In this document: positions 40,607 through 55,636 of the stretch, one piece after another | How positions within the stretch are numbered: the first letter of the stretch is position 1 | How the letters are laid out: every line of letters begins with the position of its first letter | Assembly: GCA_963705915.1 (NCBI GenBank) | Contig: OY970126.1 | Coordinates: 232,306 to 296,305, forward strand | DNA length: 64,000 nt | Reading direction: 5' to 3' | Source: an uncultured bacterium | Lineage (GTDB): Bacteria > Patescibacteriota > Minisyncoccia > UBA6257 > 2-01-FULL-56-20 | The notes under the pieces: generated by a model | Database searches by the model: none | What the model was told of the DNA's origin: nothing | The model's input: the letters and a program-made list of their open reading frames with translations, nothing else | Program-made: the position numbers and the translations under genes

Positions 40607-41317
40607 ATGCAAATAACGGATAAGGTTGTCATCGTGACCGGTGCCTCCGAAGGCATCGGTCGAGCAGTTTCGAAGACGCTTGCACGCGAAGGCGCCATTG
40701 TTGTACTCGCAGCACGTTCGGACGACAAGATCGCCGAACTCGCCCACGAATTACCGAAAGCGCTTGCCGTACATGCGGATATGCGCAACGCCGCAGATAT
40801 TCAGAACCTCGTCGATCGGGCGATTGCCGTCTATGGCCGAATCGATATTTTGGTGAACAACGCCGGACAAGGGATGTATGGGCCCGTCGATTCCATTGAT
40901 GTAGAAAAGTATCGCAACATTATGGAGTTGAACGTGTACGGTCCCCTCATCGCAATGCAGGCTGTCATCCCCCACATGCGAACACAAGGCGGCGGCATGA
41001 TAGTGAACGTAAGCTCACGTGTTTCCAAAAATTATTTTCCACGCCTTGCAGCATATGCTTCGACGAAATACGCCCTGAATGCTTTATCTTTAACGGCACG
41101 CGAAGAATTGAAGAACGACAATATTATCGTGAGCGTGATGCACCCCAAGATGACGGCAACTGCTTTCGGCAAAAATGCTATCACCGGTGGCGCTTCACGT
41201 CCGGCGCAGCCTGCAGGAACCGCTCGACCCGCAGGGATGGATGTTGATTCGGCGGAAGACGTGGCAGAAAAGATTATTGAACTCATTCATTCTGAAGCGC
41301 CAGAGGCAGAGATGTAG
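40607..41317 (+). CDS. SDR-family oxidoreductase
   Basis: VVIVTGASEGIGRA, NNAG, catalytic YASTKYAL (YxxxK). Confidence 0.85.
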   Translation: MQITDKVVIVTGASEGIGRAVSKTLAREGAIVVLAARSDDKIAELAHELPKALAVHADMRNAADIQNLVDRAIAVYGRIDILVNNAGQGMYGPVDSIDVEKYRNIMELNVYGPLIAMQAVIPHMRTQGGGMIVNVSSRVSKNYFPRLAAYASTKYALNALSLTAREELKNDNIIVSVMHPKMTATAFGKNAITGGASRPAQPAGTARPAGMDVDSAEDVAEKIIELIHSEAPEAEM

Positions 41318-41344
41318 GCAACGTGGTCATGGTACCATAGAACC

Positions 41345-42307
41345 ATGCTGATTGATGAAGTTTCGATTAAAATCCAGGCTGGGCATGGTGGCAAAGGCTC
41401 GGCTGCATTTAATAAGAATTTAATGTCTCTGGGGCCCGCTGGCGGTTCTGGAGGGCTTGGCGGCAGCGTTTATGCCCTTGGCGTGTCGGACCTCTCGGCG
41501 CTTGGTCAGTTTCGGTTTAAAAAAGCGTTCGCCGCCGAGAATGGTCACGACGGCCGAGGTCAGTTCCGCGACGGTCACACAGGCAAAGATCTCGTTTTAA
41601 AGCTGCCCGTTGGCACCGTTATCCATAACCTTACGACCGGCAGCGACACAGAAATCGTAAAGGTTGGCGAGAAAATTGTGCTGGCAAAGGGCGGCATTGG
41701 CGGCAAGGGCAATTTTCAATTTCGATCATCGCGTAATACGTCACCAAAATTTGCGCAAGACGGCCGTCCCGGCGAAGAATTCAGGCTTCACCTTGAGCTC
41801 AAATACATTGCCGATGTCGGTTTTGTTGGTTTACCAAACGTTGGCAAATCAAGTTTATTGAACAAACTCACGAATGCCCGGAGTAAGGTTGCCAATTATC
41901 ACTTCACAACCCTCGAACCCAATCTCGGTGTTTATTATGAAATCATTCTCGCCGACATCCCGGGACTCATCGAAGGGTCGTCCACCGGCAAAGGCCTCGG
42001 TATCAAGTTTTTGCGGCATATCGAGCGCACCGGCACGCTCTTCCATTTTATCTCTGCGGAGTCCGAACATCCCGCGCAGGATTATAAAACGATCCGAAAG
42101 GAGCTTGGCGCATACAACAAAGCGCTCCTCGATAAACCGGAGTATCTATTTTTGACAAAAATCGATTTACTATCCCCTGCTGAACTGAAAAAGAAGGTTG
42201 CGACACTCAAGAAGATCGATCCGCATGTGATGTCGATTTCGATTCATGATTCGGAAAGCATCAAGGAAGTTGAGAGGGTTTTGAATAAGATTAAGGCGAG
42301 AAAGTAA
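41345..42307 (+). CDS. obg: GTPase Obg (lacks C-terminal extension)
   Basis: Gly-rich Obg fold GHGGKGSAAF...GGSGGLGGSVY, G1 GLPNVGKSSLL, G3 DIPGLIEG. Confidence 0.9.
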   Translation: MLIDEVSIKIQAGHGGKGSAAFNKNLMSLGPAGGSGGLGGSVYALGVSDLSALGQFRFKKAFAAENGHDGRGQFRDGHTGKDLVLKLPVGTVIHNLTTGSDTEIVKVGEKIVLAKGGIGGKGNFQFRSSRNTSPKFAQDGRPGEEFRLHLELKYIADVGFVGLPNVGKSSLLNKLTNARSKVANYHFTTLEPNLGVYYEIILADIPGLIEGSSTGKGLGIKFLRHIERTGTLFHFISAESEHPAQDYKTIRKELGAYNKALLDKPEYLFLTKIDLLSPAELKKKVATLKKIDPHVMSISIHDSESIKEVERVLNKIKARK

Positions 42308-42328
42308 GCCCCGACTTGCGCAGGTCGG

Positions 42329-42700
42329 TTACTTCTTCTCCAACTCCAAGCACACCGAATTAATGCAGTAGCGTTTGCCGCCTTTGTCTGCGGGGCCGTC
42401 GTCAAAGACATGGCCGAGGTGTGCCCCGCAGGTTTTACAGACTACTTCGACGCGGTGCATGCCATAGGCATCGTCAGGGCGAAGAATAACTTTTTCGAGA
42501 TTGGCGGGCTCGGTAAAGCTTGGCCAGCCAGTGCCAGAATCAAATTTGGTATCGGATGAAAATAACTCCGTGCCGCAGATCGCGCACTTGTACATGCCTT
42601 TTTCGTGATTATCCCAGTACGCGCCGGTGAACGGAGCTTCGGTGCCGCCTTTGCGAGCAACGTTATAGAGTTCGGGCGGAAGTTCGTTGTCTTGTTTCAT
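42329..42700 (-). CDS. msrB: peptide-methionine (R)-S-oxide reductase
   Basis: CAICGTELFSSDTKFDSGTGWPSF, CKTCGAHLGHVF, RYCINSV. Confidence 0.9.
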   Translation of the reverse strand: MKQDNELPPELYNVARKGGTEAPFTGAYWDNHEKGMYKCAICGTELFSSDTKFDSGTGWPSFTEPANLEKVILRPDDAYGMHRVEVVCKTCGAHLGHVFDDGPADKGGKRYCINSVCLELEKK

Positions 42701-42735
42701 AATAGTATTACTTTTTAAAATTTATTTCGTGTAGA

Positions 42736-43287
42736 TCACTTGGAGTGGGTCTTCAATAATTCTGAAAACTTTTCCTGTAATTTCTCGACTTTTGGCTCAA
42801 TAATGATTTGGCAGTATGGAGCTCCACGATTGTTCTTGAAATAATTTCGGTGGTAGTCTTCGGCCGGATAGAACACATCGAGCGAGAGCGGCGTGATTTC
42901 CGTGACAATTGGCTTGCCACCCGGATCAGACGCTTGGAGGTCAGCAATAAATTTCTCGGCTTCAGCCTTTTGTTCGGGTGTCGTATAGAAAACTGCCGAG
43001 CGATATTGGGTGCCAACATCATTCCCCTGCCGGTTGAGCGTCGTCGGGTCGTGCGTGGCAAAGAATACCGTTAAGAGATCATGGAATGTAATTTGCGAAG
43101 GATCGTAATCAACGCGAATCACCTCGGCGTGACCAGTCGCACCGCTCGATACTTGCTCGTACGTTGGGTGCTTCACCATGCCGCCGGCATAACCAGGCAA
43201 AACCGAACTCACGCCGCGGAGTTCGCTGAAAACAGCTTCCGTGCACCAGAAACATCCCCCGCCAAATATCGCTACCTGTTTTTCCAT
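42736..43287 (-). CDS. msrA: peptide-methionine (S)-S-oxide reductase; start set at MEKQVAIFGGGCFWC
   Basis: GCFWC active site; upstream 60 codons of the called ORF are non-homologous. Confidence 0.9.
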   Translation of the reverse strand: MEKQVAIFGGGCFWCTEAVFSELRGVSSVLPGYAGGMVKHPTYEQVSSGATGHAEVIRVDYDPSQITFHDLLTVFFATHDPTTLNRQGNDVGTQYRSAVFYTTPEQKAEAEKFIADLQASDPGGKPIVTEITPLSLDVFYPAEDYHRNYFKNNRGAPYCQIIIEPKVEKLQEKFSELLKTHSK

Positions 43288-43304
43288 GCTTGTTATTGTA
43301 ATAA

Positions 43305-43949
43305 TTATCCTTCGAGCGAAAATGGGTGCTTCTTTAACAATTGCGCATAGTAGACCAAACTCTTTGCCAGATTCTCTGCCATGTGCGGCGTTGCCTTGTT
43401 CTTGCGTCGTCGGGCGCGATCGGTTTTTACCGGCATACCAACTTCGCCAACCCAATAGGCACAGCAATTCGGCGGCAGCGTGAAGTTCATAAACGTGAGC
43501 ACCTCCATGATTCCCGCAAGCGTCGCCTGGGCACCGTCTTCGCTGCCGGTTATTACGACGCCCGCGACTTTATTCAAAAGCTCGGCACGGCCGCCGGCAA
43601 TCACCTCTTCGTCGAAGGCATCGAGGCGTTCGATAATCCGTTGCATAAGACTCGAGCGGCCACCCCACCAGATCGGCGTGGCAAAGATCACGATATCAGC
43701 CCTTCGGATTTTATTGACGATCGCCGGCCAGTCATCACCCTTGCCTTCGTTGAAACCTAGTCCGACGGGAATATTTTTATCAGAGAGCCTGATGATCTCG
43801 GCATTGATTTCCGCGCTTTTCAAACTACGCATGTGCTTCAGAACCAGCTCGGTGACCTCTTCGGTATTTGACGGCTCTTTGTCACGCCGATGTTTGAGCG
43901 ACGCGTTCAAGACAAGAACGTTAAGCGAGTCATGTTTTGTTTTTGGCAT
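43305..43949 (-). CDS. NAD(P)H-dependent FMN reductase / flavodoxin-like fold protein
   Basis: LVLNASLK...IVIFATPIWWGG pattern of Flavodoxin_2/FMN_red family. Confidence 0.65.
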   Translation of the reverse strand: MPKTKHDSLNVLVLNASLKHRRDKEPSNTEEVTELVLKHMRSLKSAEINAEIIRLSDKNIPVGLGFNEGKGDDWPAIVNKIRRADIVIFATPIWWGGRSSLMQRIIERLDAFDEEVIAGGRAELLNKVAGVVITGSEDGAQATLAGIMEVLTFMNFTLPPNCCAYWVGEVGMPVKTDRARRRKNKATPHMAENLAKSLVYYAQLLKKHPFSLEG

Positions 43950-43981
43950 GGTCTAAGTATAGCAAGATTATACGAACACGG

Positions 43982-45193
43982 TTACCCAAAGGTAAATGTG
44001 AACGCTTGCAGCCCTGGCGAATTGACGATGAGTTCGAGCGTATGATCGCCGCCACCGTCGGCATTGTTTACCAAGTTGTACAAGCGACTCGAACTTATCG
44101 TTACCGTGCCATTGTGGACGTCGCTCCCGGCGTCGGCTGCAGGGATCGGCTGACCGTCCTGGAGGACTTGCAACGTGACCGGCGAGGAAGACGCGCTCGC
44201 GACGATATATACTTTTCCGGCGTCATATTGATAGAGAACTTCGGCCCCAGAACTTACATTCGTTGCATATTGGTCCGCAAAATCCCACGTACCGCCAAGA
44301 TAGAGCGTGTTGAGCTGCGCGCTCGCGGACGATGGCGCGGTGAGCGTCTGAAGGCCGTCTTGCATCTGTGTACCGTTCCCAAGATATTCATTCCTTGCCG
44401 CACCAAAATAGGTTTCCGGACTATTGATCTCGTTCAAATTCGCGTTTTGGACATCAACGGTTCCTGTGCTCACGTTATCCGGAAGCCCGAGTACCTGGTC
44501 ACGCTGTGTAAGTAATTTTTGTATTTCAGCTTCGGTCTCGTCGTAATTTCCTTCGCCTACCTGATCGTGCACGATGTAACCAGCGATGTCGATCAAATAT
44601 TCATGCGGCCAATACAGGTTGCCATAGGCGTCCCACGTTCCATAATTGCTATCAAGCACCACGGGGTATTGAATGCCGTATTGCTGCACCGCCGCTTGGA
44701 CATTGTTAATATTTTTTTCAAATTCAAATTCTGGTGTGTGAATGCCGACGATCTCCAACCCTTCGTTCCCATATTTTGAATACCACGATGTGAGGTAGGG
44801 CAACGTACGGATGCAGTTGATACAGCTATACGTCCAGAAGTCGAGGAGGATTACCTTTTTACCAATGAGGTTCGCGAGGTTGAATCCCGATGTTGCATTG
44901 ATGAATCCGGTTGGGTCGGCGATTTCAATTGCCGGTTGGTCGCCCGCCTTGGCGTCAGCGGCTGCAATTGCCTGGAGCCCTTCCTGCATGGTACTCGACG
45001 AGGAGCCGATCGGCGGCATGCTTGAAATGCCAGGGGAAGAACTCGTGAGGGCCGTACCTGTTGCGTTTATGTTAATCGGCGTTCCGCCGCCGGCAGTGCC
45101 ACTTGGATGCACCTGGATCGCTTCGAGATACCAAATGGCGCCGATGATGAGGACGACGAGAACACCAAGCCAGATTTTTTTATTTTTTGTCAT
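43982..45193 (-). CDS. membrane-anchored extracytoplasmic thioredoxin-fold protein (TlpA/ResA-like CxxC) with extra C-terminal beta-rich domain
   Basis: N-terminal TM; FWTYSCINCIRTLPYL CxxC thioredoxin motif; immediately downstream of ccdA. Confidence 0.7.
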   Translation of the reverse strand: MTKNKKIWLGVLVVLIIGAIWYLEAIQVHPSGTAGGGTPININATGTALTSSSPGISSMPPIGSSSSTMQEGLQAIAAADAKAGDQPAIEIADPTGFINATSGFNLANLIGKKVILLDFWTYSCINCIRTLPYLTSWYSKYGNEGLEIVGIHTPEFEFEKNINNVQAAVQQYGIQYPVVLDSNYGTWDAYGNLYWPHEYLIDIAGYIVHDQVGEGNYDETEAEIQKLLTQRDQVLGLPDNVSTGTVDVQNANLNEINSPETYFGAARNEYLGNGTQMQDGLQTLTAPSSASAQLNTLYLGGTWDFADQYATNVSSGAEVLYQYDAGKVYIVASASSSPVTLQVLQDGQPIPAADAGSDVHNGTVTISSSRLYNLVNNADGGGDHTLELIVNSPGLQAFTFTFG

Positions 45194-45197
45194 GGGA

Positions 45198-45926
45198 TTA
45201 TAGATGATGGGCTAATAAGAAGTTATTAACGAAACCGAAGTTTGCGATGAGCGTGAGGCTTTGCGTGAAAACCAAAATGCCCAAAGCGATGAGGATGACA
45301 CCGAACACCGGATTGATCCATTCGAGCTTAGTCGCGATGCGATTGATCGCTTCTGAGCTCTGCGCGACGAAAAGGCCGACGATGAGAAACGGCACGCCGA
45401 GGCCGATGGCATAGGAAAGCAGGAGGTAAAACGCCGACCCGGGCGCTGATGCGGCGAGCCCGAGAATCCCACCGAGCACCGGGCCTACGCACGGCGTCCA
45501 ACCTGCAGCAAACGCGAATCCAAAAAGGAGCGACGTGAGGTAGCGCGAACGAAAATGCAACTTTACGCCCATCTTATGGTCATACTCCAAAAATGGGATT
45601 TTAAAGAAACCCATAAGGTAGATCCCGAAAAAGATCACAATCAATCCGCCGATCCACGCAAGCCACTGTTGTACGGCATACGCGGCGTGCGCGAGGACGG
45701 TATTTAAAAGAACGCCGAGCAATGCAAAGACTATCGAGAATCCGAGCACAAAGAAGAAGCTGCTCAAAAAAACATTCCACCGCGAAGGCCTTTTGCCCGA
45801 AGCTTGTGCAGACGTCGTATCCCCCGCCAGGTAACCGAGGAACCCAGGAATGATCGGCAAAACACACGGCGAAAGGAAAGAGATGATTCCTCCGATGAAT
45901 GCGCCGATGATCGGAACATCAAGCAT
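45198..45926 (-). CDS. ccdA: cytochrome c-type biogenesis / disulfide-reductant transporter CcdA (DsbD beta-domain family)
   Basis: 6 TM; FLSPCVLPIIPGF and GWTPCVGPVLG conserved Cys-Pro motifs. Confidence 0.85.
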   Translation of the reverse strand: MLDVPIIGAFIGGIISFLSPCVLPIIPGFLGYLAGDTTSAQASGKRPSRWNVFLSSFFFVLGFSIVFALLGVLLNTVLAHAAYAVQQWLAWIGGLIVIFFGIYLMGFFKIPFLEYDHKMGVKLHFRSRYLTSLLFGFAFAAGWTPCVGPVLGGILGLAASAPGSAFYLLLSYAIGLGVPFLIVGLFVAQSSEAINRIATKLEWINPVFGVILIALGILVFTQSLTLIANFGFVNNFLLAHHL

Positions 45927-45938
45927 GAATTATGGTGA

Positions 45939-46301
45939 TTACAATTTATTTTTTCCGTAGATAAGCCCTGCGACCTTTCCGATGATCATGGCAGCGAGCG
46001 CAAATAGGAGCCAAGGATCGAGCGCGTGGGAAAGCTCCTCGATGATGATGGCGACGAGCAAAAGTCCGGAGCCCAAAAGATACGCAACGCGATCGGCAAA
46101 GAAACGGTAGAAGCGTTCATGCTCGTCGCCGCGACCTTCATTCCAAAAGAAAATAGCAAATACGGCGAAGAGTGCAACGATGCCTACGAGCAGGCCCATC
46201 ACGGCGTAGCCGGGCATAAACACGCTCCATGGGTTAAAAATCACAAAAAGCAGAATCAATAAACCGATAGCAACGGCAATTTCACCGCGGAGGTTTTTCA
46301 T
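45939..46301 (-). CDS. small 3-TM membrane protein, partner of upstream XRE regulator
   Basis: 4-nt overlap with XRE stop; hydrophobic profile. Confidence 0.45.
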   Translation of the reverse strand: MKNLRGEIAVAIGLLILLFVIFNPWSVFMPGYAVMGLLVGIVALFAVFAIFFWNEGRGDEHERFYRFFADRVAYLLGSGLLLVAIIIEELSHALDPWLLFALAAMIIGKVAGLIYGKNKL

Positions 46302-46504
46302 GAAGATAACAAAAATATTTTTTCAACCGGCTGCTTAAAAAACCTGGCAATCTTAAGTGCGAGGAGGACCGATGGGACATAATTCCCTCTCTCGATGGCA
46401 ATGATCGTTTGCCGGCTTACCCCAATCTTTTCCGCAAGCTCTTCTTGGGTTATTTCTGCCGCCGTTCTCGCGTCGTGAACATGGTTGCGCACCCGTTCTT
46501 CCAT
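46298..46504 (-). CDS. XRE-family helix-turn-helix transcriptional regulator (68 aa)
   Basis: ITQEELAEKIGVSRQTIIAIERG HTH_3 motif. Confidence 0.75.
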   Translation of the reverse strand: MEERVRNHVHDARTAAEITQEELAEKIGVSRQTIIAIERGNYVPSVLLALKIARFFKQPVEKIFLLSS

Positions 46505-46511
46505 AGATCCA

Positions 46512-46540
46512 ATGATATCGTCTTCGCAACCGATGTCAAG
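46512..46540 (-). promoter_or_regulatory. sigma70 promoter TTGACA-N17-TATCAT with -10 ending 7 nt before the XRE ATG (leaderless transcript predicted)
   Basis: Perfect -35 at 46540-46535 and -10 at 46517-46512 on minus strand. Confidence 0.4.
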
Positions 46541-46541
46541 T

Positions 46542-48197
46542 TTACTTTACATCGCTCCCTGCTGACATTTCGGGCATACTCACATGAAAGGCGCTTCCCT
46601 TGCCTTCGCCGGGTGATTCAGCCCAAAGCTTGCCACCGTGGGCTTCGGTGATTTTGCGGGCAATATAGAGCCCGAGACCGGTGCCCAAGATTTGCTTTTT
46701 CACGCGCTCGTCACGGATAAATTCCTCGAAGAGATGCGGCGCAAGGTCCGACGAGAAACCGACGCCAGAATCGGAAACGGTCACCATCGCAACCGGCGGT
46801 TGGCCTGGGGTTTGTGAGGGCACTTCTTTTAGTTCGACGTGCACGAAGCCGCTCGGGGTGTATTTGATCGCATTGTCGGTAAGATTTTGAATAACCTGCT
46901 TCAGTTTTTCCGCATCGGCGTTCACGGGAATTTCTTTGTCTGGTGCAATAAGCGTGAATTCCAGCTTCTTCGTTTCAGCGAGGCCCTTGAGCAAGTCCAC
47001 GACGTCCGTCACGAGTTTTTTTAAATCGGTGCGGGCCATTTGATATTCCATCTTCCCTTCTTCAACTTTACGCATATCAAGCAACGTGTTTATCAGGCTG
47101 ATGAGGCTATTGGCTGATTCGCCCATCTTACCAACGGTTTCTTTCACTTTATCCGACACGGGGCCGTATGAGCCGCCGACGATGAGCGTGCCGAAGCCTT
47201 TGATCGCCGCAAGTGGTGAACGAATCTGATGCGACGCGAGCGAGAGGAGTTCCGATTTGAAGTGCGAAAGTTCTTCGAGTTGTTTGTTTGTAGCGTCGAG
47301 CTTGGCGTTCAGCCGCTCAAGTTCTTCACGTTGCTCGACTTCCCGCTGCACGCTTTGGATAAGTAAAATACCGAATGAAAGTACGAGGACAAAGACCGCG
47401 CTCTGGAATAAGATTTGCGCGAAGCCTTGGGCAAAAATTATTTCTGCGAACGTGGTGACGGCGAGGGTAAAAGTGAGCGCCTGTGCTGCAAAAACCTTAA
47501 TTTGTAAAAGATGATGCTTTATAACGGCGTACGTCGTAAACGCGATGAGCGGAAAAATGAATACGGCGCCAAGCGGCAAAAAGCGCGGCTCATTAAAGAA
47601 CGCGGGCAAAATGAAATTGAAAATGATATGGAGCGAAAACGTTATGATGGCACCAGCAAGGATAAGTCCGTAGGCAGCCCGATCGCCTTTTTCGGCATGG
47701 ATAAGTTTTTTTGTGAGGACGACGAATGAGCCGATGATGAGACCAAGTACAAAAATTCCAAAAATAACGATGCCAAATCCCGGCTGGGCAACGGAGACTT
47801 GCCCCGCCTTATTTATTTGGTCGACCCGCTCAAGTGCATACGGAGACAACGTGAAAAGCGAAACGAGGACCGTGGCAGGAACAAGGAAGCGCTTATACCA
47901 TTTTGGAAATTCGATTGATTCCGTCGGGAATACATAGAAAAATTGGAAAAGTGAAAAACAGTACCATACCGCGAAAAAGAGAATAAGCCTAAAAAGCCAG
48001 ATGATAACCTCCGGTGACCCCGATTGGTAACTAAGGTAATTGACGATGCTCCACGCAGATGCCGCGAGCGCGAGGAACAGAAAGCTAATATTCGAAATGC
48101 TTTTTCGTTTATTAAAATAGGCGATGAATCCGAGAATTGCATTCGCGGCGAAAGCAACGGCGACAGATAAAAGATCAACATTAACAAAGGAGTTCAT
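46542..48197 (-). CDS. sensor histidine kinase with N-terminal 7TM-type membrane sensor domain
   Basis: At least 7 TM helices; HisKA H-box LSLASHQIRSPLAAIKG; HATPase N/G1/G2 boxes (DNAIKYT, DSGVGF, GTGLGL). Confidence 0.85.
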   Translation of the reverse strand: MNSFVNVDLLSVAVAFAANAILGFIAYFNKRKSISNISFLFLALAASAWSIVNYLSYQSGSPEVIIWLFRLILFFAVWYCFSLFQFFYVFPTESIEFPKWYKRFLVPATVLVSLFTLSPYALERVDQINKAGQVSVAQPGFGIVIFGIFVLGLIIGSFVVLTKKLIHAEKGDRAAYGLILAGAIITFSLHIIFNFILPAFFNEPRFLPLGAVFIFPLIAFTTYAVIKHHLLQIKVFAAQALTFTLAVTTFAEIIFAQGFAQILFQSAVFVLVLSFGILLIQSVQREVEQREELERLNAKLDATNKQLEELSHFKSELLSLASHQIRSPLAAIKGFGTLIVGGSYGPVSDKVKETVGKMGESANSLISLINTLLDMRKVEEGKMEYQMARTDLKKLVTDVVDLLKGLAETKKLEFTLIAPDKEIPVNADAEKLKQVIQNLTDNAIKYTPSGFVHVELKEVPSQTPGQPPVAMVTVSDSGVGFSSDLAPHLFEEFIRDERVKKQILGTGLGLYIARKITEAHGGKLWAESPGEGKGSAFHVSMPEMSAGSDVK

Positions 48198-48203
48198 GTC
48201 GGG

Positions 48204-49271
48204 CTAGGTATACGTGATATCTGGTGGAAGCCTGAGCGATTGCCACGCAAGCGGCTTACCCTTGCCGACGCGCATGAGAAATACCATTGTGTCGCCTCCG
48301 ATACCCGCGATCTCTTTAATAGCCGCATGCGAAGCGTTTATGGTATCGACTTGTTTCGCTGAAAAATCTTGTGCTTCGTTTCTTAAAATTCGCTGCTCAA
48401 AGAAAAGAATCGCGCTGATCGGTTGCACGTCATAGCCAAGCCTATTAGCGGTAAGCCAAAATCGTTGGACCATGCTGCCTCCCTTAAGAAAATCAACCTT
48501 CGTGTTCCCTGGCATGGTGAATATCGCGATACCCGAAACATTCGCATAAAGTTTCACATTGCCTTGAGCGGCGATCTTTGGGAAACCGATGGCACGGAAG
48601 AAATGCAGAAATCCATGGCTTCGGAGTAATTTGAATGTTGCTTCCTGCGGCCCAGCGAGCCCCAGCTCTTTCACGTAAAAACCGCTTTTATGTTCTTCGG
48701 CTTCTTTCGTCGACCAATAAATATGCCCGAATAAAAAGTCGTGAATCTTATCACTCTCAAAGAGAAGCCGATCACCGTAACTAAGCGCTTTGGCAATGTG
48801 CTCCTTTTGGGTTTTATCTTCTATGAGCTTTATCTTCCCGCCGTATGAAAATTCATTCGCCACGCCAAGTAGTGCTTTCCGTTCGTCCTCAGAAAACGTC
48901 GCAGCGCCATTATAATGCGTGCGATTCGATACCCGCTTGGGGATGACATCCATCAATGGATCTGCACTTACCCCATCTTCTTTTTTAAACGTGATATTTG
49001 CGACATGATTTTCATCTGTTTGCGACGGAAAGAATGTCGGCTCCGCCGCGTATTGGAACGCAGAGGCAGCAATCATAATATTCTCAATGAGCGCTCCATG
49101 AGCCACAAAAGAGCCGAGCTGGTCGATATTATAGAGCGACCTGTCCCGATCCGGGAGATTATAGATGGAAAGCATATCGCCGCTCATCACGAACCGCCAC
49201 GGTTGGGAATTTTCTCCTGATGGCGCCCTCACGCCGGCCTCTAAAATTTTTTCAATCGTGTTTCGATCCAT
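48204..49271 (-). CDS. tandem nitroreductase-fold FMN protein (Acg/SagB-like double NTR domain)
   Basis: RAPSGENSQPWRF FMN-binding motif in the first half, second degenerate NTR-like half; 355 aa. Confidence 0.65.
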   Translation of the reverse strand: MDRNTIEKILEAGVRAPSGENSQPWRFVMSGDMLSIYNLPDRDRSLYNIDQLGSFVAHGALIENIMIAASAFQYAAEPTFFPSQTDENHVANITFKKEDGVSADPLMDVIPKRVSNRTHYNGAATFSEDERKALLGVANEFSYGGKIKLIEDKTQKEHIAKALSYGDRLLFESDKIHDFLFGHIYWSTKEAEEHKSGFYVKELGLAGPQEATFKLLRSHGFLHFFRAIGFPKIAAQGNVKLYANVSGIAIFTMPGNTKVDFLKGGSMVQRFWLTANRLGYDVQPISAILFFEQRILRNEAQDFSAKQVDTINASHAAIKEIAGIGGDTMVFLMRVGKGKPLAWQSLRLPPDITYT

Positions 49272-49277
49272 GCGTGG

Positions 49278-50465
49278 CTATAGCCCAAACATTTTTCGGA
49301 ACGAATCCGCAATGTCGGTGCGTTCTTTTACGGCCGCCGGTGAGTTGTAGTCAGGAATAAGTTTTTCATCGAGCGAGACGAGGGCGCGATTCGATTCTAT
49401 CGGTTGGCCGTTCACAATTTTCCGGACACAGTATGCCACCGCAGCACCATTCAGCCACGCGGCGCCTCCAAGTTGTGGCCAAGAAACGATCGTTTTACCC
49501 ATCTCGAGGAGCGACTGCTGCATACGCGGCGTAATATTTTCAGGCCCGATATGTTTCGTGATTGTCTTCCCGATGCCAAATTTATCAAGGGACGTGAGTT
49601 CTTTGTAGGTTACATTGCCAAGGCGCCCTTGGAAAAAGGGCAAATTCGGGTCGAGGTCGTAGCGCTCCACATCGACGACGGCATTATCACCATTGTCTGC
49701 GGCCATCACGAGCGGCAGTTTATACTTCTTGGCATACTCACGAATGAGATACTTCACGCCGAGACTGTCCAATTCATCGATTACAATGTCGAGCTTCGGC
49801 GGTCCGGCAAAAAACTTTTCCAAGTTTTCTTTGGTGAGCCCCTCGGAAAAAAGTTCGATTTCCGCGTAGGGGTTTAGTTCATAAATCTGCCGAGCGGTCA
49901 TCTCGGTCTTCTGAAGCCCAAGGTTTTGCACGCCGGCACGAATGCGATTGATGTTCGTGAGAGCAAGCCGATCAAAGTCAGCAATGCGAAAATGCTTTCC
50001 GCCTCCCTGCTGAACGATAGATAAAACAACATTATTGCCAACGCTCAAACCACCGATGCCGATGACGGCGTTATAAAATTTTTCCTGCTCCTCGGCGTTG
50101 ATAAGATTCTTATTTCTCGCCGTTCGGACTTTTTGAAAATCGGCGTCTTCGAGAACGTGTACGAGCGATGAAAGCCATGGATAAAATATCCAACGGCCTT
50201 GCCGCGTAAACGGCTTTTGTTTTTTGAGGTCCTCAAGATATGCCTCGGTTTTCTCTTTAAATCCTGGCGCGTAGACCATCGAGGGGTTATTGATGGCAAA
50301 CAGTTCACGAAGCTGTTCTTCGTAATCGTCTCCGACGCTTTGTATGATATTCGAAGCGAAAAGTTCGGCCGCTCGAACACCATCTTTTTCTTGATTCAAA
50401 TCCAAGATCTCCGGTTTTGAAACACTCTGCTTAGCGGTTAATTTGTTCTGAAGATCGTCATTCAT
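49278..50465 (-). CDS. E1-like / ThiF-MoeB family adenylyltransferase-fold protein with about 130-aa N-terminal extension, no C-terminal CxxC
   Basis: Rossmann motif VIGIGGLSVGNNV, RIADFDRLALTNINR (conserved Arg/Asp of E1 fold), MAADNGDN. Confidence 0.7.
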   Translation of the reverse strand: MNDDLQNKLTAKQSVSKPEILDLNQEKDGVRAAELFASNIIQSVGDDYEEQLRELFAINNPSMVYAPGFKEKTEAYLEDLKKQKPFTRQGRWIFYPWLSSLVHVLEDADFQKVRTARNKNLINAEEQEKFYNAVIGIGGLSVGNNVVLSIVQQGGGKHFRIADFDRLALTNINRIRAGVQNLGLQKTEMTARQIYELNPYAEIELFSEGLTKENLEKFFAGPPKLDIVIDELDSLGVKYLIREYAKKYKLPLVMAADNGDNAVVDVERYDLDPNLPFFQGRLGNVTYKELTSLDKFGIGKTITKHIGPENITPRMQQSLLEMGKTIVSWPQLGGAAWLNGAAVAYCVRKIVNGQPIESNRALVSLDEKLIPDYNSPAAVKERTDIADSFRKMFGL

Positions 50466-50486
50466 GGTGTTATTGGTATAGATTCA

Positions 50487-51992
50487 TTATAGTGTGCTTG
50501 GCTTCAAAACCCATTTTTGTTTGATGCCAGGCTTAAAATACGTGGGCGTTTCATAACCCCATAGTACGACGACCGGCGTCACTTTATGCGGGATAGCGTT
50601 GTGATTATTCCTGTATTCCGCATTGCGTTTTATGAGTGATTCAACGATATGGTGTTGCACTCTTTTCTCAAGCGCTTTCGACATTTTTATATTGCGCTTG
50701 GTCTCGACATCGATCTCGAGATATTCATCTTGCTTCTTATTAAACTTTGTTATCATAGTGAACTTTCCGGTCACGAATGGCCGAAGCGATTTATGCGCCA
50801 AGCCCTCACGGACATGCTCCGGATAGATGATCGCTCCGTAAAGTTTTGCGGAGAAATCACTCCGCTCATATACATACACAAAGGGCATTTCGGTGAGCGG
50901 TGCGTTCACGTGACGCAATTCTTTTTCTATTGAAATATCATGAAGCGCCATATTCTCTCTGGCTTCAATCATTGAGAATACCCCCCCATTATCGCCCAAA
51001 GCGTATCGCACGAGCGGCAAGGCATTATCCCCGGTAAGCATGATCTCGCCATCGGGAGCCTCGAATGTCGCGAACAGTGGATTATATTGCGCAACGGTCG
51101 GCGTTTTTGCGATATTCGAAAAAAACGTCTTAAAGAGATGCGGATTCGCGAGTGTAAGTCTGCGGACGAGAATGCTCGTCGGTGTTTCGAACGCCATCGC
51201 GCCGAGGTCTGCGGTGCCATAAATATTTAGTGTGTCCCGATATATATTTTTTATACCGGTTTCCTTCGCGAGATAGTCTCGAAAGGGCTCAGTGAATGCT
51301 TCTGCGGCGAAAAGTAATCTCATGTGTAATTTCTTGAGGTCGATCCCCTCCGCTATCGCTTCTTCCAGGACGTCTTTCACGAAAGGCGGATAACCAATCA
51401 GCACCGTTTGTCCGAATCGCGGAGCAAGAGACCGTAGCGCGTGAAAAATTTCTCCTTTATTGATGCCCGGGGTGATTACGGAAACAACGTGTTTCATCCG
51501 GTGACTCGCGATCTCAAACGCTTTGTAGGTCAAAACGCCTCCGATCCAAACGCCCATCCCAAACCCCACGATCACAAGCGTTGATTTTTCGCTGCCCCGC
51601 GAACTATTTTTCAAAAACATTTCTGCGAGCACCGAATATTGTTCATCCAACTGTTCGGTTCGCGGAAAATAAAAGGGTGCGCCCGTCGATCCGGATGTAG
51701 ACGTCCACACGATCCCGTTTCCTAATGTACCTCCCCAGACTAGCTTGTCCGGAGGATATTGTCGCAAATAGTTTTTCCTATCTACCGGCGGGACAAGCTG
51801 AAAATCTTTAAAAGTCTTGATCTTTCCTGACGCGATTTTGTGTTTTTTTAAGAAATCTTTATATGCCGGTACGCCATGGGCTGCCCGGTGAAAAAGATCG
51901 AGCGCCCGATGCTCGCGAGTTTTATCCCAAAATGCGGCTTTCTCACGCCTTACCTTATCCAAGACGCCCTCAATGGAACGATCATTATTCAT
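50487..51992 (-). CDS. PaaK-like adenylate-forming enzyme (phenylacetate-CoA ligase / F390-synthetase family)
   Basis: N-terminal VPAYKDFLKKH...DFQLVPPVDRKNYLRQYPP pattern and P-loop TSTSGSTGAPFYFP analogous to PaaK SSGTTGKP. Confidence 0.7.
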   Translation of the reverse strand: MNNDRSIEGVLDKVRREKAAFWDKTREHRALDLFHRAAHGVPAYKDFLKKHKIASGKIKTFKDFQLVPPVDRKNYLRQYPPDKLVWGGTLGNGIVWTSTSGSTGAPFYFPRTEQLDEQYSVLAEMFLKNSSRGSEKSTLVIVGFGMGVWIGGVLTYKAFEIASHRMKHVVSVITPGINKGEIFHALRSLAPRFGQTVLIGYPPFVKDVLEEAIAEGIDLKKLHMRLLFAAEAFTEPFRDYLAKETGIKNIYRDTLNIYGTADLGAMAFETPTSILVRRLTLANPHLFKTFFSNIAKTPTVAQYNPLFATFEAPDGEIMLTGDNALPLVRYALGDNGGVFSMIEARENMALHDISIEKELRHVNAPLTEMPFVYVYERSDFSAKLYGAIIYPEHVREGLAHKSLRPFVTGKFTMITKFNKKQDEYLEIDVETKRNIKMSKALEKRVQHHIVESLIKRNAEYRNNHNAIPHKVTPVVVLWGYETPTYFKPGIKQKWVLKPSTL

Positions 51993-52049
51993 CGCATGTA
52001 ATGGGGATTTACTAACATTATAGCACGAACGAAGCGCAAAACTTGATTT

Positions 52050-53108
52050 TTATTTCTTATTCTTTCTTCCCTTCAAAAATATATTCTCGGCAAGCTGGTC
52101 TGCTACTTCGTTCATCGATTTCTTCTTTTCTTTCGAAAGCGCAATGATCGTGCTCACGGTCTCGCGGATCTGTAAAACTTTTTCGCGCACGCGCTCTTTG
52201 GAATATCCTTTTTTATCCAATTCAGAGACGACGTCGATCAACCCACCGGCATTCGCGACATAATCGGGCACATAGAGAATGCCGAGTCGTTGAAGGACGC
52301 GGCCGTACGAACTTGATTTAAGCTGATTATTCGATCCACCGCAAATGATGCTACAGCGAAATTGGTCGATCGTGCGCTCATCAATTTCCGTACCGAGCGC
52401 ATTCGGGCTATAGACGTCCACTTTTTGTTTGTGGATCTCTTTCGGGCTCACAAATTTTATGCCTTTTATCTTTCGCCGTGCCGCACTCATAGCCTCTTCG
52501 CGAATATCACTTGCGATGATTTTCCCACCATGACGATCGACGAGAATGGCGACCTCCATGCCAACTTTACCGAGGCCTCGTATGGCGACGCTTCGATTCC
52601 GAAGTTCGTCGCTCCCAAAAACTTCTTTGAGCGCCGCCTGGAGTGCCTGAAAAACACCGAGTGCGGCCCACGGGCTCGGATCCCCTCCTAGGCGTTTTCG
52701 CCCAATAATATAAGGTGAATATTTGGCGAGCTGGTTCGCGTCGTTTTGATCGACACCGACGTCTTCGCCCGTGAAAAACCCTCCGTGAAATAAATTGATT
52801 CGGCGCGCATAAGCTGCTAAAAACTTTTTATTTTTTAAATTCTGATGGTTGCCGATGATGACCGCTTTTCCCCCGCCATATGGAAGCCCAGCGAGCGCAC
52901 ACTTATACGTCATGGCACGCGAAAGCCGCAATGCGTCTTTGAGCGCTTCCTGCTCGGAGCCGTAGTGCCAATATCGCGTACCGCCGGTAGCCGGACCAAG
53001 ATTGGTGTTATGGATACAGATATACCCTCGCAAGCCGACGCTCTCGTCTGCAATATATGAGACAAGCTCGTGATTATCAAACTCCGGAAGGTCGACGAAA
53101 TTTTCCAT
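52050..53108 (-). CDS. Glu/Leu/Phe/Val-family amino-acid dehydrogenase (Leu/Phe-dehydrogenase-like)
   Basis: LGPATGGTRYWHY, catalytic Lys box LPYGGGKAVIIG, Rossmann GLGKVGMEVA. Confidence 0.85.
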   Translation of the reverse strand: MENFVDLPEFDNHELVSYIADESVGLRGYICIHNTNLGPATGGTRYWHYGSEQEALKDALRLSRAMTYKCALAGLPYGGGKAVIIGNHQNLKNKKFLAAYARRINLFHGGFFTGEDVGVDQNDANQLAKYSPYIIGRKRLGGDPSPWAALGVFQALQAALKEVFGSDELRNRSVAIRGLGKVGMEVAILVDRHGGKIIASDIREEAMSAARRKIKGIKFVSPKEIHKQKVDVYSPNALGTEIDERTIDQFRCSIICGGSNNQLKSSSYGRVLQRLGILYVPDYVANAGGLIDVVSELDKKGYSKERVREKVLQIRETVSTIIALSKEKKKSMNEVADQLAENIFLKGRKNKK

Positions 53109-53110
53109 GA

Positions 53111-53497
53111 CTACATGAGGCTTTTGACACGTTCGGCGAGACGACCAATATCGTCGGTTTTACTAAGAATCGTGACGGGGCCAACGTGCTGCATCATCAT
53201 AGTTCGATCGTCGCGAAATTCAAGCCATGGATCTCGGAGGCTCGTAAAAAGCGCGAAATGGATATCACGGGTCTTTGCGTCCTTGCGAAGTGCGAGCGCC
53301 AAGTCCCAACCATTGGGCCCAGGCGGCATGTAGACATCACTCAAGACCATATCGGGACTTACGGAAGCTATAGCATCGAGCGCTTCGGGAACGCTATGGG
53401 CCTTTACGACATCAAAGTCGCCAGCAAGCTGGGTTGAAGCGATTTCGAGAAATGCATCTTCATCGTCCACGATCACTATGAGCGGCTTCGATCTCAT
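53111..53497 (-). CDS. stand-alone response-regulator receiver domain (CheY-like)
   Basis: IVDDE, phospho-acceptor Asp in MVLSDVYMP, conserved Thr/Lys. Confidence 0.8.
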   Translation of the reverse strand: MRSKPLIVIVDDEDAFLEIASTQLAGDFDVVKAHSVPEALDAIASVSPDMVLSDVYMPPGPNGWDLALALRKDAKTRDIHFALFTSLRDPWLEFRDDRTMMMQHVGPVTILSKTDDIGRLAERVKSLM

Positions 53498-53540
53498 GCA
53501 TTCATTATAACAATAGGGCCTTATTTGCGTATATCTTTAT

Positions 53541-53693
53541 ATGCTTGTAACCATTGCTGTGATTTTATTAATCTTGTGGGTCCTGGGCCTCGTGACATCC
53601 TATACGATCGGTGGTTTCATCTATATCCTCCTGGTCGTCGCGATCATCCTATTTCTTATCAGGATCATCCAAGGGAAAAACCCGGTCCAATAA
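53541..53693 (+). CDS. lmo0937-family small membrane protein (50 aa, two TM helices)
   Basis: Own translation: MLVTIAVILLILWVLGLVTSYTIGGFIYILLVVAIILFLIRIIQGKNPVQ; below the 60-aa ORF-track cutoff. Confidence 0.6.
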   Translation: MLVTIAVILLILWVLGLVTSYTIGGFIYILLVVAIILFLIRIIQGKNPVQ

Positions 53694-53722
53694 AACGTGG
53701 GGTACAAAAACAGCGCTTTTTA

Positions 53723-55555
53723 CTAAGCGCTGTTTTTATTTGCTCGCTTGCGATCGTTGTCGGTGAGATATTTTTTCCGGATACGGACGTTCTGCGGCGT
53801 CACTTCTACCAGTTCATCATCGCCAATATAATCGAGGGCATCCTCAAGTGAAAGTGTGAGTGGTGTTTCGAGCTGATCGGCCAAACCTTCGTTTTTCGCG
53901 CGGAAGTTCGTGAGCTGTTTCTCGCGCGCAACGTGCACCATGACGTCGCCGTCTTTTGCGTTTTGCCCGACGACCATCCCTTCGTAAACCTCAATGCCGG
54001 GTCCGATGAAAAGCGTACCGCGTCCTTGGGCTGTCACCAAGCCGTAGTTGTTGGATTTTCCCGACTGCGTGGCAACGATGGAGCCGAACGGAAGCGCCGT
54101 GATGTCTCCCTTGTATGGTTCATAGCCCAAGAAAATGCTGTTCATGATGCCGGTGCCCTTCGTTGCCGTGAGAAATTTATTGCGGATACCAATAAGGCCG
54201 CGTGTCGGGACGTCGAAGTCCATAAACGCGATTTTCTTGTCGTCGACTTTCATATTCTTCATCAAGCCGAGGCGCTTGCCGAGCATTTCAATTACCGTGC
54301 CGGAATAGGCTTCGGGCACTTCAATCGAAACGAGTTCAATCGGTTCAAGTTTTTTACCGTTCTCTTCCTTGAAAATAACCTGCGGCTTTGAAACCTCCAC
54401 TTCGTATCCTTCGCGACGCATTTTTTCGATGAGAATTGAAAGGTGTAATTCGCCGCGTCCTGCAACAATCCATTTATCGGTTGTGTCGGTTGGCGTAACC
54501 TTCAACGCAACGTCAGTTTCCAGTTCATGATCCAATCGCTCCTTTATGTTGCGCGACGTAGTAAATTTTCCTTCGCGCCCACGAAATGGCGAGGTATTCA
54601 CCGCAAATGTCATCTTGATCGTTGGCTCGTCAATTTCAATGGTTGGCAAAGGTTTTGGATCGTCAGGGTCAGTAATAGTTTCGCCGATGGTAATATCTGG
54701 GATACCCGCGATAGCAACGATGTCGCCGGCATACGCCTCTTCAACGTCCACGCGGCCAAGACCATCGAACACCATCACCGATGTGATCTGCTCTTTTTTG
54801 ATTGCTCCATCGCGTGTGATATGCGCCACGGTCGCCGCTTTCTTTAATGTGCCAGCGTACAAACGGCCAACGCCAAGTTTGCCTTTGTAATTGTCCGGTG
54901 CCAAATTAACCGTCAAAAACTGGAGCGTCGTTATCTCGCTCCCGTCGGCATTCTTTGGAATTTGAGGGGCGGGAATATGCTTGATAATCTCGTCGAAAAT
55001 CGGCACGATGTCTTTCATCTCGCTCAAGTTTTTATTCAGCCCGGCTTTTCCTTCGCGCGCGGCGGCATAAATTACCGGGAACTCGATTTGCGCTTCCGTT
55101 GCGTCGAGCTCAAAAAACAAATCATACGTGGCGTTGAGTGCCCATTCAGGCCGTGCGTCAGGCTTATCAATTTTATTGATCACGACGACAATTTTGTGTC
55201 CCGCCTGGATCGCCTTCCGCAAAACAAATTTTGTCTGCGGCATCGGCCCTTCCTTTGCGTCGACGAGCAGGAGAACTCCGTCAACCATGCGCATAATACG
55301 TTCAACTTCGCCGCCAAAGTCAGCGTGGCCCGGCGTGTCCACAATATTTATCTTCGTGTCGTGATAGATGACGGCGGCATTTTTTGAAAAAATAGTTATG
55401 CCGCGCTCCCTCTCAAGCTCGTTTGAATCCATGATAAGTTCGCTCTGCGCCCCGGTTTTTAACTTAAAGCTCGCCGACTGCTTGAGGAGCGCGTCGACGA
55501 GGGTGGTTTTGCCGTGGTCTACGTGGGCAATGATAGCGATGTTTCGAATGTCCAT
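53723..55555 (-). CDS. typA: translational GTPase TypA/BipA; start set at MDIRNIAIIAHVDHGKTT
   Basis: G1-G5 motifs, EF-G-like domains, 610 aa. Confidence 0.9.
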   Translation of the reverse strand: MDIRNIAIIAHVDHGKTTLVDALLKQSASFKLKTGAQSELIMDSNELERERGITIFSKNAAVIYHDTKINIVDTPGHADFGGEVERIMRMVDGVLLLVDAKEGPMPQTKFVLRKAIQAGHKIVVVINKIDKPDARPEWALNATYDLFFELDATEAQIEFPVIYAAAREGKAGLNKNLSEMKDIVPIFDEIIKHIPAPQIPKNADGSEITTLQFLTVNLAPDNYKGKLGVGRLYAGTLKKAATVAHITRDGAIKKEQITSVMVFDGLGRVDVEEAYAGDIVAIAGIPDITIGETITDPDDPKPLPTIEIDEPTIKMTFAVNTSPFRGREGKFTTSRNIKERLDHELETDVALKVTPTDTTDKWIVAGRGELHLSILIEKMRREGYEVEVSKPQVIFKEENGKKLEPIELVSIEVPEAYSGTVIEMLGKRLGLMKNMKVDDKKIAFMDFDVPTRGLIGIRNKFLTATKGTGIMNSIFLGYEPYKGDITALPFGSIVATQSGKSNNYGLVTAQGRGTLFIGPGIEVYEGMVVGQNAKDGDVMVHVAREKQLTNFRAKNEGLADQLETPLTLSLEDALDYIGDDELVEVTPQNVRIRKKYLTDNDRKRANKNSA

Positions 55556-55636
55556 TTTTATTGAATAAAATCCGCGCCTCATGGCACGGCCTCCTACGAG
55601 CAATTATTATAGTAAAATCAAGGCGAAAGAGCAAGT

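Follow-up and report, generated by a model that had tools for sequence, protein, structure and literature searches.

Within the window analysed here, a 64-kb stretch of contig OY970126.1 (GCA_963705915.1) from an uncultured member of the Patescibacteriota (Paceibacteria/Parcubacteria), thirteen genes on the minus strand form a tight array that an original prediction, made from the sequence, described as linking two-component signalling and an enzyme module to a redox-repair cassette, and read as one stress-responsive locus. We think it fairly probable that the array is instead a lineage-specific, head-to-tail juxtaposition of two autonomous modules. The first, block A (53497-46542), runs from a stand-alone receiver (REC) gene through genes for an amino-acid dehydrogenase, a PaaK-family ligase, a ThiF/E1-like enzyme and a flavin-dependent oxidase (FDO) that belongs to the nitroreductase (NTR) superfamily to a seven-transmembrane (7TM) sensor histidine kinase (HK), and bears a likeness to the oxazolone pathway described in recent work. 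The second, block B (46504-42329), runs from an XRE-family regulator to MsrB and is a self-contained repair operon. Their adjacency would stem from an insertion or deletion that took place, in one sub-lineage, between BipA-DUF2127 and XRE, and would not represent an obligate unit.

Conservation of the two blocks in related genomes

For block A, 80 loci, all from Patescibacteria, came from a scan that took a single genome for each species, and tblastn maps were made of 80 non-duplicate loci. The PaaK-like ligase lies directly upstream of ThiF in 67 of 71 testable loci, the FDO is adjacent to ThiF in 42 of 70 and within 4 kb in 44 of 56 testable loci, and a 7TM kinase follows within 3.5 kb downstream in 39 of 56 testable loci; a REC gene is present in 28 of the 80. 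The comparison of synteny proposed with the original prediction gave a divided answer, since co-localisation of the two blocks is kept in seven genomes but the CcdA...MsrB block lies downstream of block A in only 5 of 47 testable loci (L001, L007, L012, L048 and L064). BipA is found upstream in all five. The closest relative of block A, L004, in which ThiF is 83% identical, has neither BipA nor block B.

Block B was followed by a metagenome scan with an alignment of its anchored thioredoxin and by look-ups of homologues of its 120-aa membrane protein (TM120). Three loci, L086, L164 and L165, have the order PrxQ(-), BipA, (-)DUF2127, [XRE, TM,] CcdA, Trx, MsrA, MsrB, (-)ABC-F, (-)Obg, with the same flanks as L001 and with no REC...HK block. 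Block A is also absent from L084, where BipA, (-)DUF2127, XRE, TM, CcdA, Trx and FMN reductase follow one another, while in L048, L064 and L167 it sits exactly between (-)DUF2127 and XRE. Among block B loci with informative upstream sequence, seven have block A, counting the window, and nine do not. The genomes with the adjacency are the window, L001, L007, L012, L048, L064 and L167, and to this extent the physical linkage of the redox-repair genes to the kinase and the E1/NTR genes has been retained; BipA is 72-87% identical in the five adjacency genomes compared by tblastn. The TM120 protein of L164 and L165, both free of block A, is 71% identical to that of the window, and so no more distant than in the loci that bear block A, where the identity is 60-68%.

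The regulators could also be assigned to one block or the other. XRE was found with TM120 and CcdA/thioredoxin across the contexts examined, and XRE and TM120 precede fused, DipZ-like CcdA-Trx genes in the distant loci L103 and L109. In L007, which has no XRE gene, ccdA comes straight after the kinase. Because of the synteny seen from both blocks, XRE and its membrane partner are best placed with the thiol-redox genes, and not with the kinase near which the regulator had been noted, and the kinase with the enzymes. Signs of a mobile insertion of block A were not found, in that the two junctions share no repeats of at least 8 nt and the difference in GC content is small (48.4% vs 50.9%). An ECF-type sigma factor gene lies between BipA and DUF2127 in L164 (8558-9202) and an rve-family transposase gene between ABC-F and Obg in L165 (14962-15852), two cases which show the neighbourhood to be prone to insertion and deletion.

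An open reading frame (ORF) listing and an analysis of the junctions agree with the original prediction on thirteen consecutive minus-strand genes (Table 1). The gaps, in order from REC to MsrB, are 2, 57, 21, 6, 6, 37, -4, 12, 4, 32, 17 and 35 nt, the largest being 57 nt as first described; two 4-nt overlaps had been claimed and a single one was found, between XRE and TM120 (46301-46298). The same window, of which about 94% is coding, has a second run of thirteen minus-strand genes (10045-23035) and shorter co-directional runs (7, 7 and 6 genes). Such runs being ordinary here, tight co-directionality alone is not evidence of a functional unit. The gene identities first proposed for REC, HK, ThiF/E1, nitroreductase, XRE, CcdA, thioredoxin, FMN reductase, MsrA and MsrB were all matched in Pfam or NCBIfam. 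What had been missed is that the E1/NTR pair is a split homologue of oxazolone synthetases of the Rv1355c/TrzS type, that a PaaK-family ligase is encoded by the 501-aa ORF, and that the product of the 352-aa ORF is an amino-acid dehydrogenase and not a signalling protein.

Table 1. Genes and candidate transcription signals of the array, in window coordinates
Feature	Positions	Strand	Evidence or remark
REC, stand-alone receiver, 128 aa, first gene of block A	53111..53497	-	Pfam Response_reg 7e-9
Glu/Leu/Phe/Val-family amino-acid dehydrogenase, ScyB-like, 352 aa	52050..53108	-	Pfam ELFV_dehydrog_N 1e-23, ELFV_dehydrog 3e-17
PaaK-family (ANL) adenylate-forming ligase, 501 aa	50487..51992	-	NCBIfam PaaK 1.7e-11
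ThiF/E1-like adenylating enzyme, 395 aa, homologous to N-terminal half of Rv1355c/TrzS	49278..50465	-	Pfam ThiF 5e-20
FDO, nitroreductase superfamily, 355 aa, homologous to C-terminal half of Rv1355c/TrzS	48204..49271	-	NCBIfam PRK14851 207 bits
Sensor histidine kinase, 551 aa, membrane-embedded N-terminal sensor with multiple transmembrane segments	46542..48197	-	Pfam HisKA_7TM 3e-10, HisKA 2e-11, HATPase_c 2e-23
XRE-family helix-turn-helix regulator, 68 aa	46298..46504	-	Pfam HTH_3 1e-14 (1.3e-14)
TM120, membrane protein with four transmembrane segments, 120 aa	45939..46301	-	four hydrophobic segments; 4-nt ATGA overlap with XRE
CcdA-type transmembrane thiol-disulfide electron transporter, 242 aa	45198..45926	-	Pfam DsbD_TM 2e-15 (1.7e-15)
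Membrane-anchored extracytoplasmic thioredoxin-fold protein, 403 aa	43982..45193	-	Pfam AhpC-TSA, Redoxin, Thioredoxin_10 1e-32 (1.4e-32)
NADPH-dependent FMN reductase, 214 aa, optional block B member	43305..43949	-	Pfam FMN_red 5.5e-20
Cytoplasmic MsrA, 183 aa from ATG 43287	42736..43287	-	Pfam PMSR 2e-62; GCFWC at residue 11
Cytoplasmic MsrB, 123 aa	42329..42700	-	Pfam SelR 3.5e-50; RYCIN, two CxxC motifs
Candidate block A promoter, extended -10 TGtTATAAT	53504..53512	-	6 nt before REC ATG; would give leaderless mRNA
Block B promoter, TTGACA (46539-46534)-N16-TATCAT (46517-46512)	46512..46539	-	7 nt before XRE ATG; leaderless
Palindromic operator-like site, ATGTAAAG-N4-CTTGACAT (minus-strand)	46533..46552		within inverted repeat 46531-46554, 11-nt arms

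Transcription signals and the possibility of a single locus

The autonomy of the two blocks is also suggested by the signals ahead of XRE. A promoter with a 17-nt spacer had been proposed in the 37-nt gap before this gene, and inverted repeats near 46505-46545. Both features are real, and the two hexamers are as described; the spacer is N16, however, and the repeats lie somewhat further upstream than stated (Table 1). The promoter has 11 of 12 consensus matches, the best of a 15-kb scan. The palindrome overlaps the -35 box with its right arm, and also the HK stop codon, and its centre, if transcription starts at the ATG, falls near -38.5. The sequence ATGTAAAG-N4-CTTGACAT is found exactly upstream of XRE in seven sequences (the window, L001, L012, L048, L064, L084 and L169), with one mismatch in L165, L166, L167 and L168, and in more degenerate form in L164. 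It is kept whether the gene upstream is the kinase, DUF2127 or another, both in loci that have block A and in loci that lack it. Six sequences were compared first, and in these the -35 and -10 boxes and the 16-nt distance between them are kept while the spacer sequence varies, and the XRE ATG follows the -10 box by 6-7 nt in five of the six, the spacing in L084 being longer. Such a phylogenetic footprint, extending across differing upstream genes, shows by its conservation that the block B promoter is real and that the left palindrome arm is a putative protein-binding site.

The likelier role of XRE would then be to occlude the -35 box, so that block B, expressed from its own and largely leaderless promoter, would probably be autorepressed through the palindrome. 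This motif is single-copy in the 64-kb window, with no second copy at up to three mismatches; within the window no copy lies upstream of block A, and nothing points to control of block A by XRE. The proposal of at least two transcription units is borne out by the conserved promoter of XRE itself. Block A has a candidate promoter of its own, a -10-like box being present 6-12 nt ahead of the REC ATG in all six genomes compared. Perfect TATAAT boxes also precede the genes for the ligase (TGcTATAAT, 24 nt), ThiF, thioredoxin and FMN reductase, and in L007, which lacks XRE, TATACT-N6-ATG precedes ccdA.

A check for terminators and promoters between the genes had been suggested; it gave no convincing terminators in the array, and more than two promoters are probably present. 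Scans and RNA folds (z -1.0 to +0.8) revealed no convincing intrinsic terminator at the HK-XRE, dehydrogenase-ligase or BipA-REC junctions or after msrB, and consequently the boundary of the blocks cannot be set by terminators. Rfam families were likewise absent from 41000-57000 at E <= 0.1.

Start signals were counted over the whole window, for 64 genes of at least 100 aa. A Shine-Dalgarno-like 4-mer precedes 5 of the 64 against a background of 11%, and so is not enriched, while TANNNT ending 5-10 nt before the ATG precedes 24 of the 64 against a background of 7.6%, with TATAAT-N6-ATG as the commonest spacing. This suggests that leaderless mRNAs, or mRNAs with very short leaders, are widespread in the window. 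As the genome is compact, makes little use of Shine-Dalgarno sequences and has many promoters just before starts, long co-directional arrays of this kind should not be annotated as operons unless there is comparative evidence.

A different explanation is that the array is one integrated oxidative- or envelope-stress locus, in which the 7TM kinase and REC sense a cue and control the CcdA-Trx-Msr genes, or are co-expressed with them, by read-through or by way of XRE. We regard this as somewhat unlikely, although several observations favour it and weigh against two autonomous modules. The adjacency has been kept in seven genomes in spite of the exchange of the deaminase/ligase cassette, which has the dehydrogenase in the window, an IlvE-type aminotransferase in L001 and L012, no deaminase in L007 and a tyrosine ammonia-lyase (TAL) in L048, L064 and L167. 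Since the 37-nt HK-XRE gap has no terminator, read-through from block A into block B is possible, and the direct succession of kinase and ccdA in L007 fits the same idea. A glutaredoxin-like gene and TrxB also come directly after the block A kinase or REC in L004 (15422-16654), L043 (6009-7175) and L056 (13320-14488); L043 and L056 are a related pair, and these genes are thus found in two lineages besides that with CcdA-Trx-Msr. There are precedents in the msrAB2-ccdA-eTrx-modRS cluster of Fusobacterium nucleatum (PMC12288474) and in HprSR-MsrPQ of Escherichia coli (PMC9805139), a tyzC mutant of Mycobacterium tuberculosis is sensitive to reactive oxygen species (PMC10404671), and the FDO reaction uses O2.

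What stands of the one-locus proposal is the adjacency, the lack of a terminator between the blocks and the thiol-redox genes after the kinase in two other lineages. Against it, block B has its own promoter, operator and regulator, conserved across contexts, and occupies the same site without block A in relatives that are equally close (L084, L086, L164 and L165). The kinase stays with block A in 39 of 56 loci without block B. Of the 80 block A loci, 72 lack any thiol-redox gene within reach, and no second operator copy lies ahead of block A. The array also has no DNA-binding response regulator through which the kinase could act on block B, as was noted from the outset. The 128-aa REC protein stands alone, with no output domain in Pfam or NCBIfam, and the REC-REC protein that takes its place in other lineages is likewise without one.

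Block A as a probable variant of the oxazolone pathway

Judged by its sequence relationships, block A seems to be a variant, spread across Paceibacteria, of the oxazolone pathway of the ThiF-FDO kind, and one of which we found no description in the literature searched. In Mycobacterium, Rv1355c (TrzS) turns N-acyl-tryptophan into N-acyl tryptazolone by a cyclisation that depends on ATP and a desaturation that depends on O2 (PMC12856293). TyzB and TyzC are a split version that makes tyrazolones (PMC10404671), OxzB is a proteobacterial fusion (bioRxiv 10.1101/2020.06.11.147165), and NasY-ThiF-NTR clusters occur in Planctomycetota (PMC12479983). The NCBIfam model of the Rv1355c family describes a 722-residue fusion. 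The window ThiF protein matches it with 332 bits over model positions 5-349, the N-terminal extension included, and its next-best ThiF-family match is 68 bits; the FDO, encoded 6 nt further on, matches positions 374-713 with 186 bits, and is also related to the Acg family (140 bits) and to MsAcg in the Protein Data Bank (PDB; 2ymv, 4e-7). The ThiF protein is about 65% identical across Paceibacteria, with GIGGLSVG, D163/D165, N171/N173/R174 and D230/D233 invariant.

Three components set it apart: the PaaK-family ligase, a deaminase slot that can be swapped, and an embedded two-component system. The ligase has a PaaK-type two-domain fold (AF2 model, pLDDT 86.9; Foldseek match to PaaK1 2y27, E 1.6e-21, TM-score 0.70/0.81), a P-loop TSGSTG at residue 99 and PDB profile matches to PaaK of about 1e-8, and its other Foldseek neighbours include the benzoxazole ligase ClxA and 2-hydroxyisobutyryl-CoA ligase. 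Its scores against two NCBIfam PaaK models (43 and 29 bits) are under their cut-offs of 700 and 646, and in Pfam it has no hit, AMP-binding included, at E <= 0.01. Because the equivalog score for phenylacetate-CoA ligase is not reached and there is no AMP-binding match, a substrate cannot be assigned from family membership.

The slot just upstream of the ligase was classified in 59 testable loci. It holds an ELFV dehydrogenase in 14, a class IV aminotransferase in 5 and an aromatic amino-acid ammonia-lyase in 12, the last checked against the Pfam Lyase_aromatic profile in L048 and L064. What the three kinds of enzyme have in common is that they take the alpha-amino group off an amino acid, so that a carboxylic acid is left. 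The window dehydrogenase scores 291 bits against the NCBIfam tryptophan dehydrogenase ScyB, under the 600-bit cut-off; the L064 lyase is closest, among NCBIfam models, to the flexirubin tyrosine ammonia-lyase FlxA (578 bits). Lyases occur only with ligase subtype 2, a divergent form 33% identical to the window ligase (12/12), and dehydrogenases or aminotransferases only with subtype 1 (19/19). It is mainly because of this co-variation that we infer the deaminated acid to be the ligase substrate.

A pathway may be proposed on this basis. The deaminating enzyme, here the ScyB-like dehydrogenase, would provide a carboxylic acid from an aromatic or branched-chain amino acid; the ligase would adenylate this acid and might join it to an amino acid, forming an N-acyl amino acid; the ThiF-like enzyme would adenylate the amino-acid carboxylate and cyclise the product to an oxazolone; and the FDO would desaturate the oxazolone using O2. 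The chemistry of the last two steps has been shown experimentally for TyzB/TyzC, TrzS and OxzB (PMC10404671, PMC12856293, bioRxiv 10.1101/2020.06.11.147165). The kinase and REC would be part of the module and may sense a lipophilic product or regulate its synthesis.

Some features of block A tell against this assignment. The fusion model has an equivalog cut-off of 476 bits, and the split ThiF and FDO proteins each score less than this, with a simple sum of 518; the FDO is missing from some loci (L043 and L056); and no recognisable deaminase lies beside the ligase in 28 of the 59 loci. All known oxazolone clusters have as third gene an N-acyl amino acid synthase of the OxzA/TyzA/TrzA/NasY type, and no acyltransferase domain was found in the 13 proteins of the array, the rest of the genome not having been searched. 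The PaaK-like ligase might take the place of the acyltransferase, but we know of no PaaK-family enzyme for the acyl-amino-acid step of an oxazolone pathway. A recurrent protein of some 305 aa, outside any Pfam family and found directly upstream of the 7TM kinase in nine loci, was considered as the missing acyltransferase and rejected; no family match was obtained for it, and the window does not have it.

Such points could be taken to mean that block A is not of the oxazolone type. It might serve amino-acid salvage or catabolism, with a deaminase and an aryl-acid CoA ligase, or the modification of a peptide, protein or tRNA by ThiF adenylation and an NTR dehydrogenase, as in azole-containing ribosomally synthesised and post-translationally modified peptides (RiPPs). 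In their classical role PaaK enzymes serve catabolic pathways as CoA ligases, the aminotransferase of L001 exceeds the IlvE equivalog cut-off (366 vs 279 bits) and could be a housekeeping enzyme, and conservation as unusually strong as that of ThiF across the class is commoner in housekeeping functions, for example tRNA modification. Among solved structures the best sequence relative of ThiF is TcdA (1.6e-14), though the match covers only the Rossmann core (residues 136-262), and TcdA itself closes an oxazolone ring in a cyclodehydration that depends on ATP (PMC12596934). The 110-aa N-terminal domain of ThiF is well predicted, and when it was tried as a peptide-binding domain of the RiPP recognition element or MccB-clamp kind, Foldseek matched mainly the Rossmann core, with MccB/PaaA at a TM-score of about 0.4. 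The top structural match was AclA of Tenacibaculum discolor (9egb). We nevertheless consider a function outside oxazolone synthesis unlikely, since the ThiF match to the Rv1355c family far exceeds the next-best ThiF-family match and takes in the N-terminal extension, and the FDO matches the other half of the same fusion family. No conserved small ORF for a precursor peptide or ubiquitin-like protein lies beside the genes, nor is there a YcaO-type partner, and the fixed ligase-ThiF-FDO order together with the co-variation of deaminase and ligase subtype fits a dedicated pathway.

If the oxazolone assignment is correct, it bears on a group of bacteria, the candidate phyla radiation (CPR) or Patescibacteria, with tiny genomes and very little biosynthesis, in which the ligase-ThiF pair is nevertheless found across Paceibacteria. 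The authors of the oxazolone studies suggest a role in signalling or stress adaptation (PMC10404671, PMC12856293). It is conceivable, though quite improbable, that block A is a metabolite-signalling circuit widespread in Paceibacteria, in which an oxazolone or dehydroamino acid is sensed by the 7TM kinase and relayed through the output-less REC, reporting oxygen or redox state, because the last step needs O2, or else cell or host density. The repeated presence of thiol-redox genes after the kinase (CcdA-Trx-Msr; Grx-TrxB) would in that case reflect the redox-reporting role, and there would be a physiological role for oxazolones and a dedicated small-molecule signal for CPR bacteria. A CPR version would broaden the chemistry of the oxazolone pathway and provide a workable system for testing the signalling idea.

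The signalling proteins themselves appear intact. In REC, D11, D12, D54, S86 and K113 are invariant in six orthologues and all residues of the phospho-acceptor pocket are present. The kinase has the H-box HQIRSPL at residue 323 (H323), the motifs DSGVG and GTGLG, and about eight hydrophobic segments, so that its sensor is nearly all membrane-embedded. The 305-aa protein mentioned above is always directly upstream of the kinase in L009, L011, L014, L024, L030, L042, L051 (12256-13173), L079 and L080, even where the kinase is several kb from the FDO, and may be a kinase accessory.

Other neighbours of block A vary between lineages. In L041 two ThiF matches about 3.8 kb apart belong to tandem ligase-ThiF modules, one TAL-type with subtype 2 and one with subtype 1, suggesting that the pathway has been duplicated or has diversified. 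In L002/L003/L018 (14851-15201 and 15478-15771) the gene after REC-REC is one for chorismate mutase (CM_2), and in L002 and L018, which are on the same contig, a Trp-repressor-like gene comes after it, a further aromatic amino-acid theme beside block A. An S-adenosylmethionine-dependent methyltransferase gene lies between ThiF and FDO in L004 (11203-11799, minus strand), an order that recalls the methyltransferase-ThiF-NTR order of stieleriacine clusters in Stieleria (PMC12479983).

Block B, its flanks and comparison with known systems

Block B belongs to a known kind of repair cluster, of which it is an ordinary example, and the catalytic motifs of its redox proteins are intact. What is notable in it is only the conserved XRE operator and the prevalence of promoters just before starts. 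TM120 is, by the overlap of their genes, the translationally coupled partner of XRE; it has no Pfam or NCBIfam match, and only 24 homologues were found. CcdA has exactly two cysteines, C21 and C146, and would send reducing equivalents across the membrane to the anchored thioredoxin, the two proteins forming a conduit like a split DipZ for the reduction of extracytoplasmic disulfides. The thioredoxin has one N-terminal transmembrane segment, an S/T-rich linker, the motif C124-I-N-C127, invariant in five orthologues, and then the Thioredoxin_10 domain. MsrA, whose catalytic Cys is residue 12, and MsrB have neither a signal peptide nor a transmembrane segment; given this lack of export signals they should act in the cytoplasm, where they would reduce methionine sulfoxide. 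FMN reductase is present in L001, L048 and L084 and not in L007, L012, L064, L086, L164 or L165. The start of MsrA is most likely the ATG at 43287, 17 nt past the FMN-reductase stop, as in its relatives. A 243-aa ORF from TTG 43467 was rejected as an over-extension, as its Pfam match starts only at residue 66 and it would overlap FMN reductase by 163 nt.

The array is bounded downstream by a convergent Obg gene. Upstream, within the 225-nt gap between BipA and REC, lies a plus-strand gene (53541-53693) for a 50-aa small membrane protein of the DUF5670 family (Pfam 4.7e-14), in the place where relatives hold a minus-strand DUF2127 gene. The BipA ORF is listed from TTG 55603, whereas homologues begin MD(I/L)RNIAIIAHVDHGKT, which corresponds to ATG 55555. 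Divergent from BipA and beside it is a thiol peroxidase gene (BCP/PrxQ; 55674-56150, plus strand; NCBIfam 174 bits vs a 140-bit cut-off). This neighbour is kept in L001, L007, L012, L048, L064, L086, L164 and L165, and an antioxidant gene is thus found near the array regardless of block A.

Among known systems, block A most resembles those that make oxazolones, namely TrzAS (Rv1356c/Rv1355c) and TyzACB (Rv2336-2338c) of M. tuberculosis, OxzAB of Pseudoalteromonas rubra and the NasY-ThiF-NTR clusters, all of which place a ThiF cyclase beside an NTR oxidase. The window ThiF and FDO align end-to-end with the halves of the Rv1355c-family model and are split as in TyzB/TyzC, and aromatic amino-acid enzymes are found in the neighbourhood of block A as in those systems. 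Unlike them, block A has a PaaK-family ligase upstream, no synthase gene in the array, a variable deaminase slot, a 7TM kinase and REC within the conserved module, and a CPR host. The flexirubin enzymes FlxA (TAL) and FlxY (acyl-CoA ligase) are paralleled in the TAL-type loci, where a lyase adjoins a ligase that weakly matches FlxY, but the scores there are below the equivalog cut-offs, polyketide machinery is lacking, and the window has a dehydrogenase in place of TAL. TcdA, the tRNA t6A dehydratase, differs in having no FDO or ligase partners and in acting on tRNA.

The DipZ protein of M. tuberculosis is a fusion of CcdA and thioredoxin, and its C-terminal domain defines Pfam Thioredoxin_10. 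The likeness of block B to it lies in the Thioredoxin_10 domain of the window thioredoxin and in the fused, DipZ-like form of L103 and L109. With the CcdA-Etrx-MsrAB2 surface repair system of Streptococcus pneumoniae (PMC3914529) block B shares the CcdA conduit and an extracytoplasmic CxxC thioredoxin, but MsrAB2 is exported there whereas the Msr proteins of block B are predicted to be cytoplasmic, and FMN reductase is an optional extra. The E. coli HprSR (YedVW)-MsrPQ system (PMC9805139) resembles the window in linking a two-component system to methionine sulfoxide repair, and differs from it in using the molybdoenzyme MsrP with MsrQ, in its DNA-binding regulator and in having a demonstrated regulatory link. 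The F. nucleatum cluster (PMC12288474) is like the window in its CcdA, exported or anchored thioredoxin, Msr without signal peptide and adjoining two-component system. There, however, ModR is a conventional regulator of the operon, whereas in the window the receiver is output-less, the kinase belongs to a separable module, block B has an XRE of its own, and MsrA and MsrB are separate genes.

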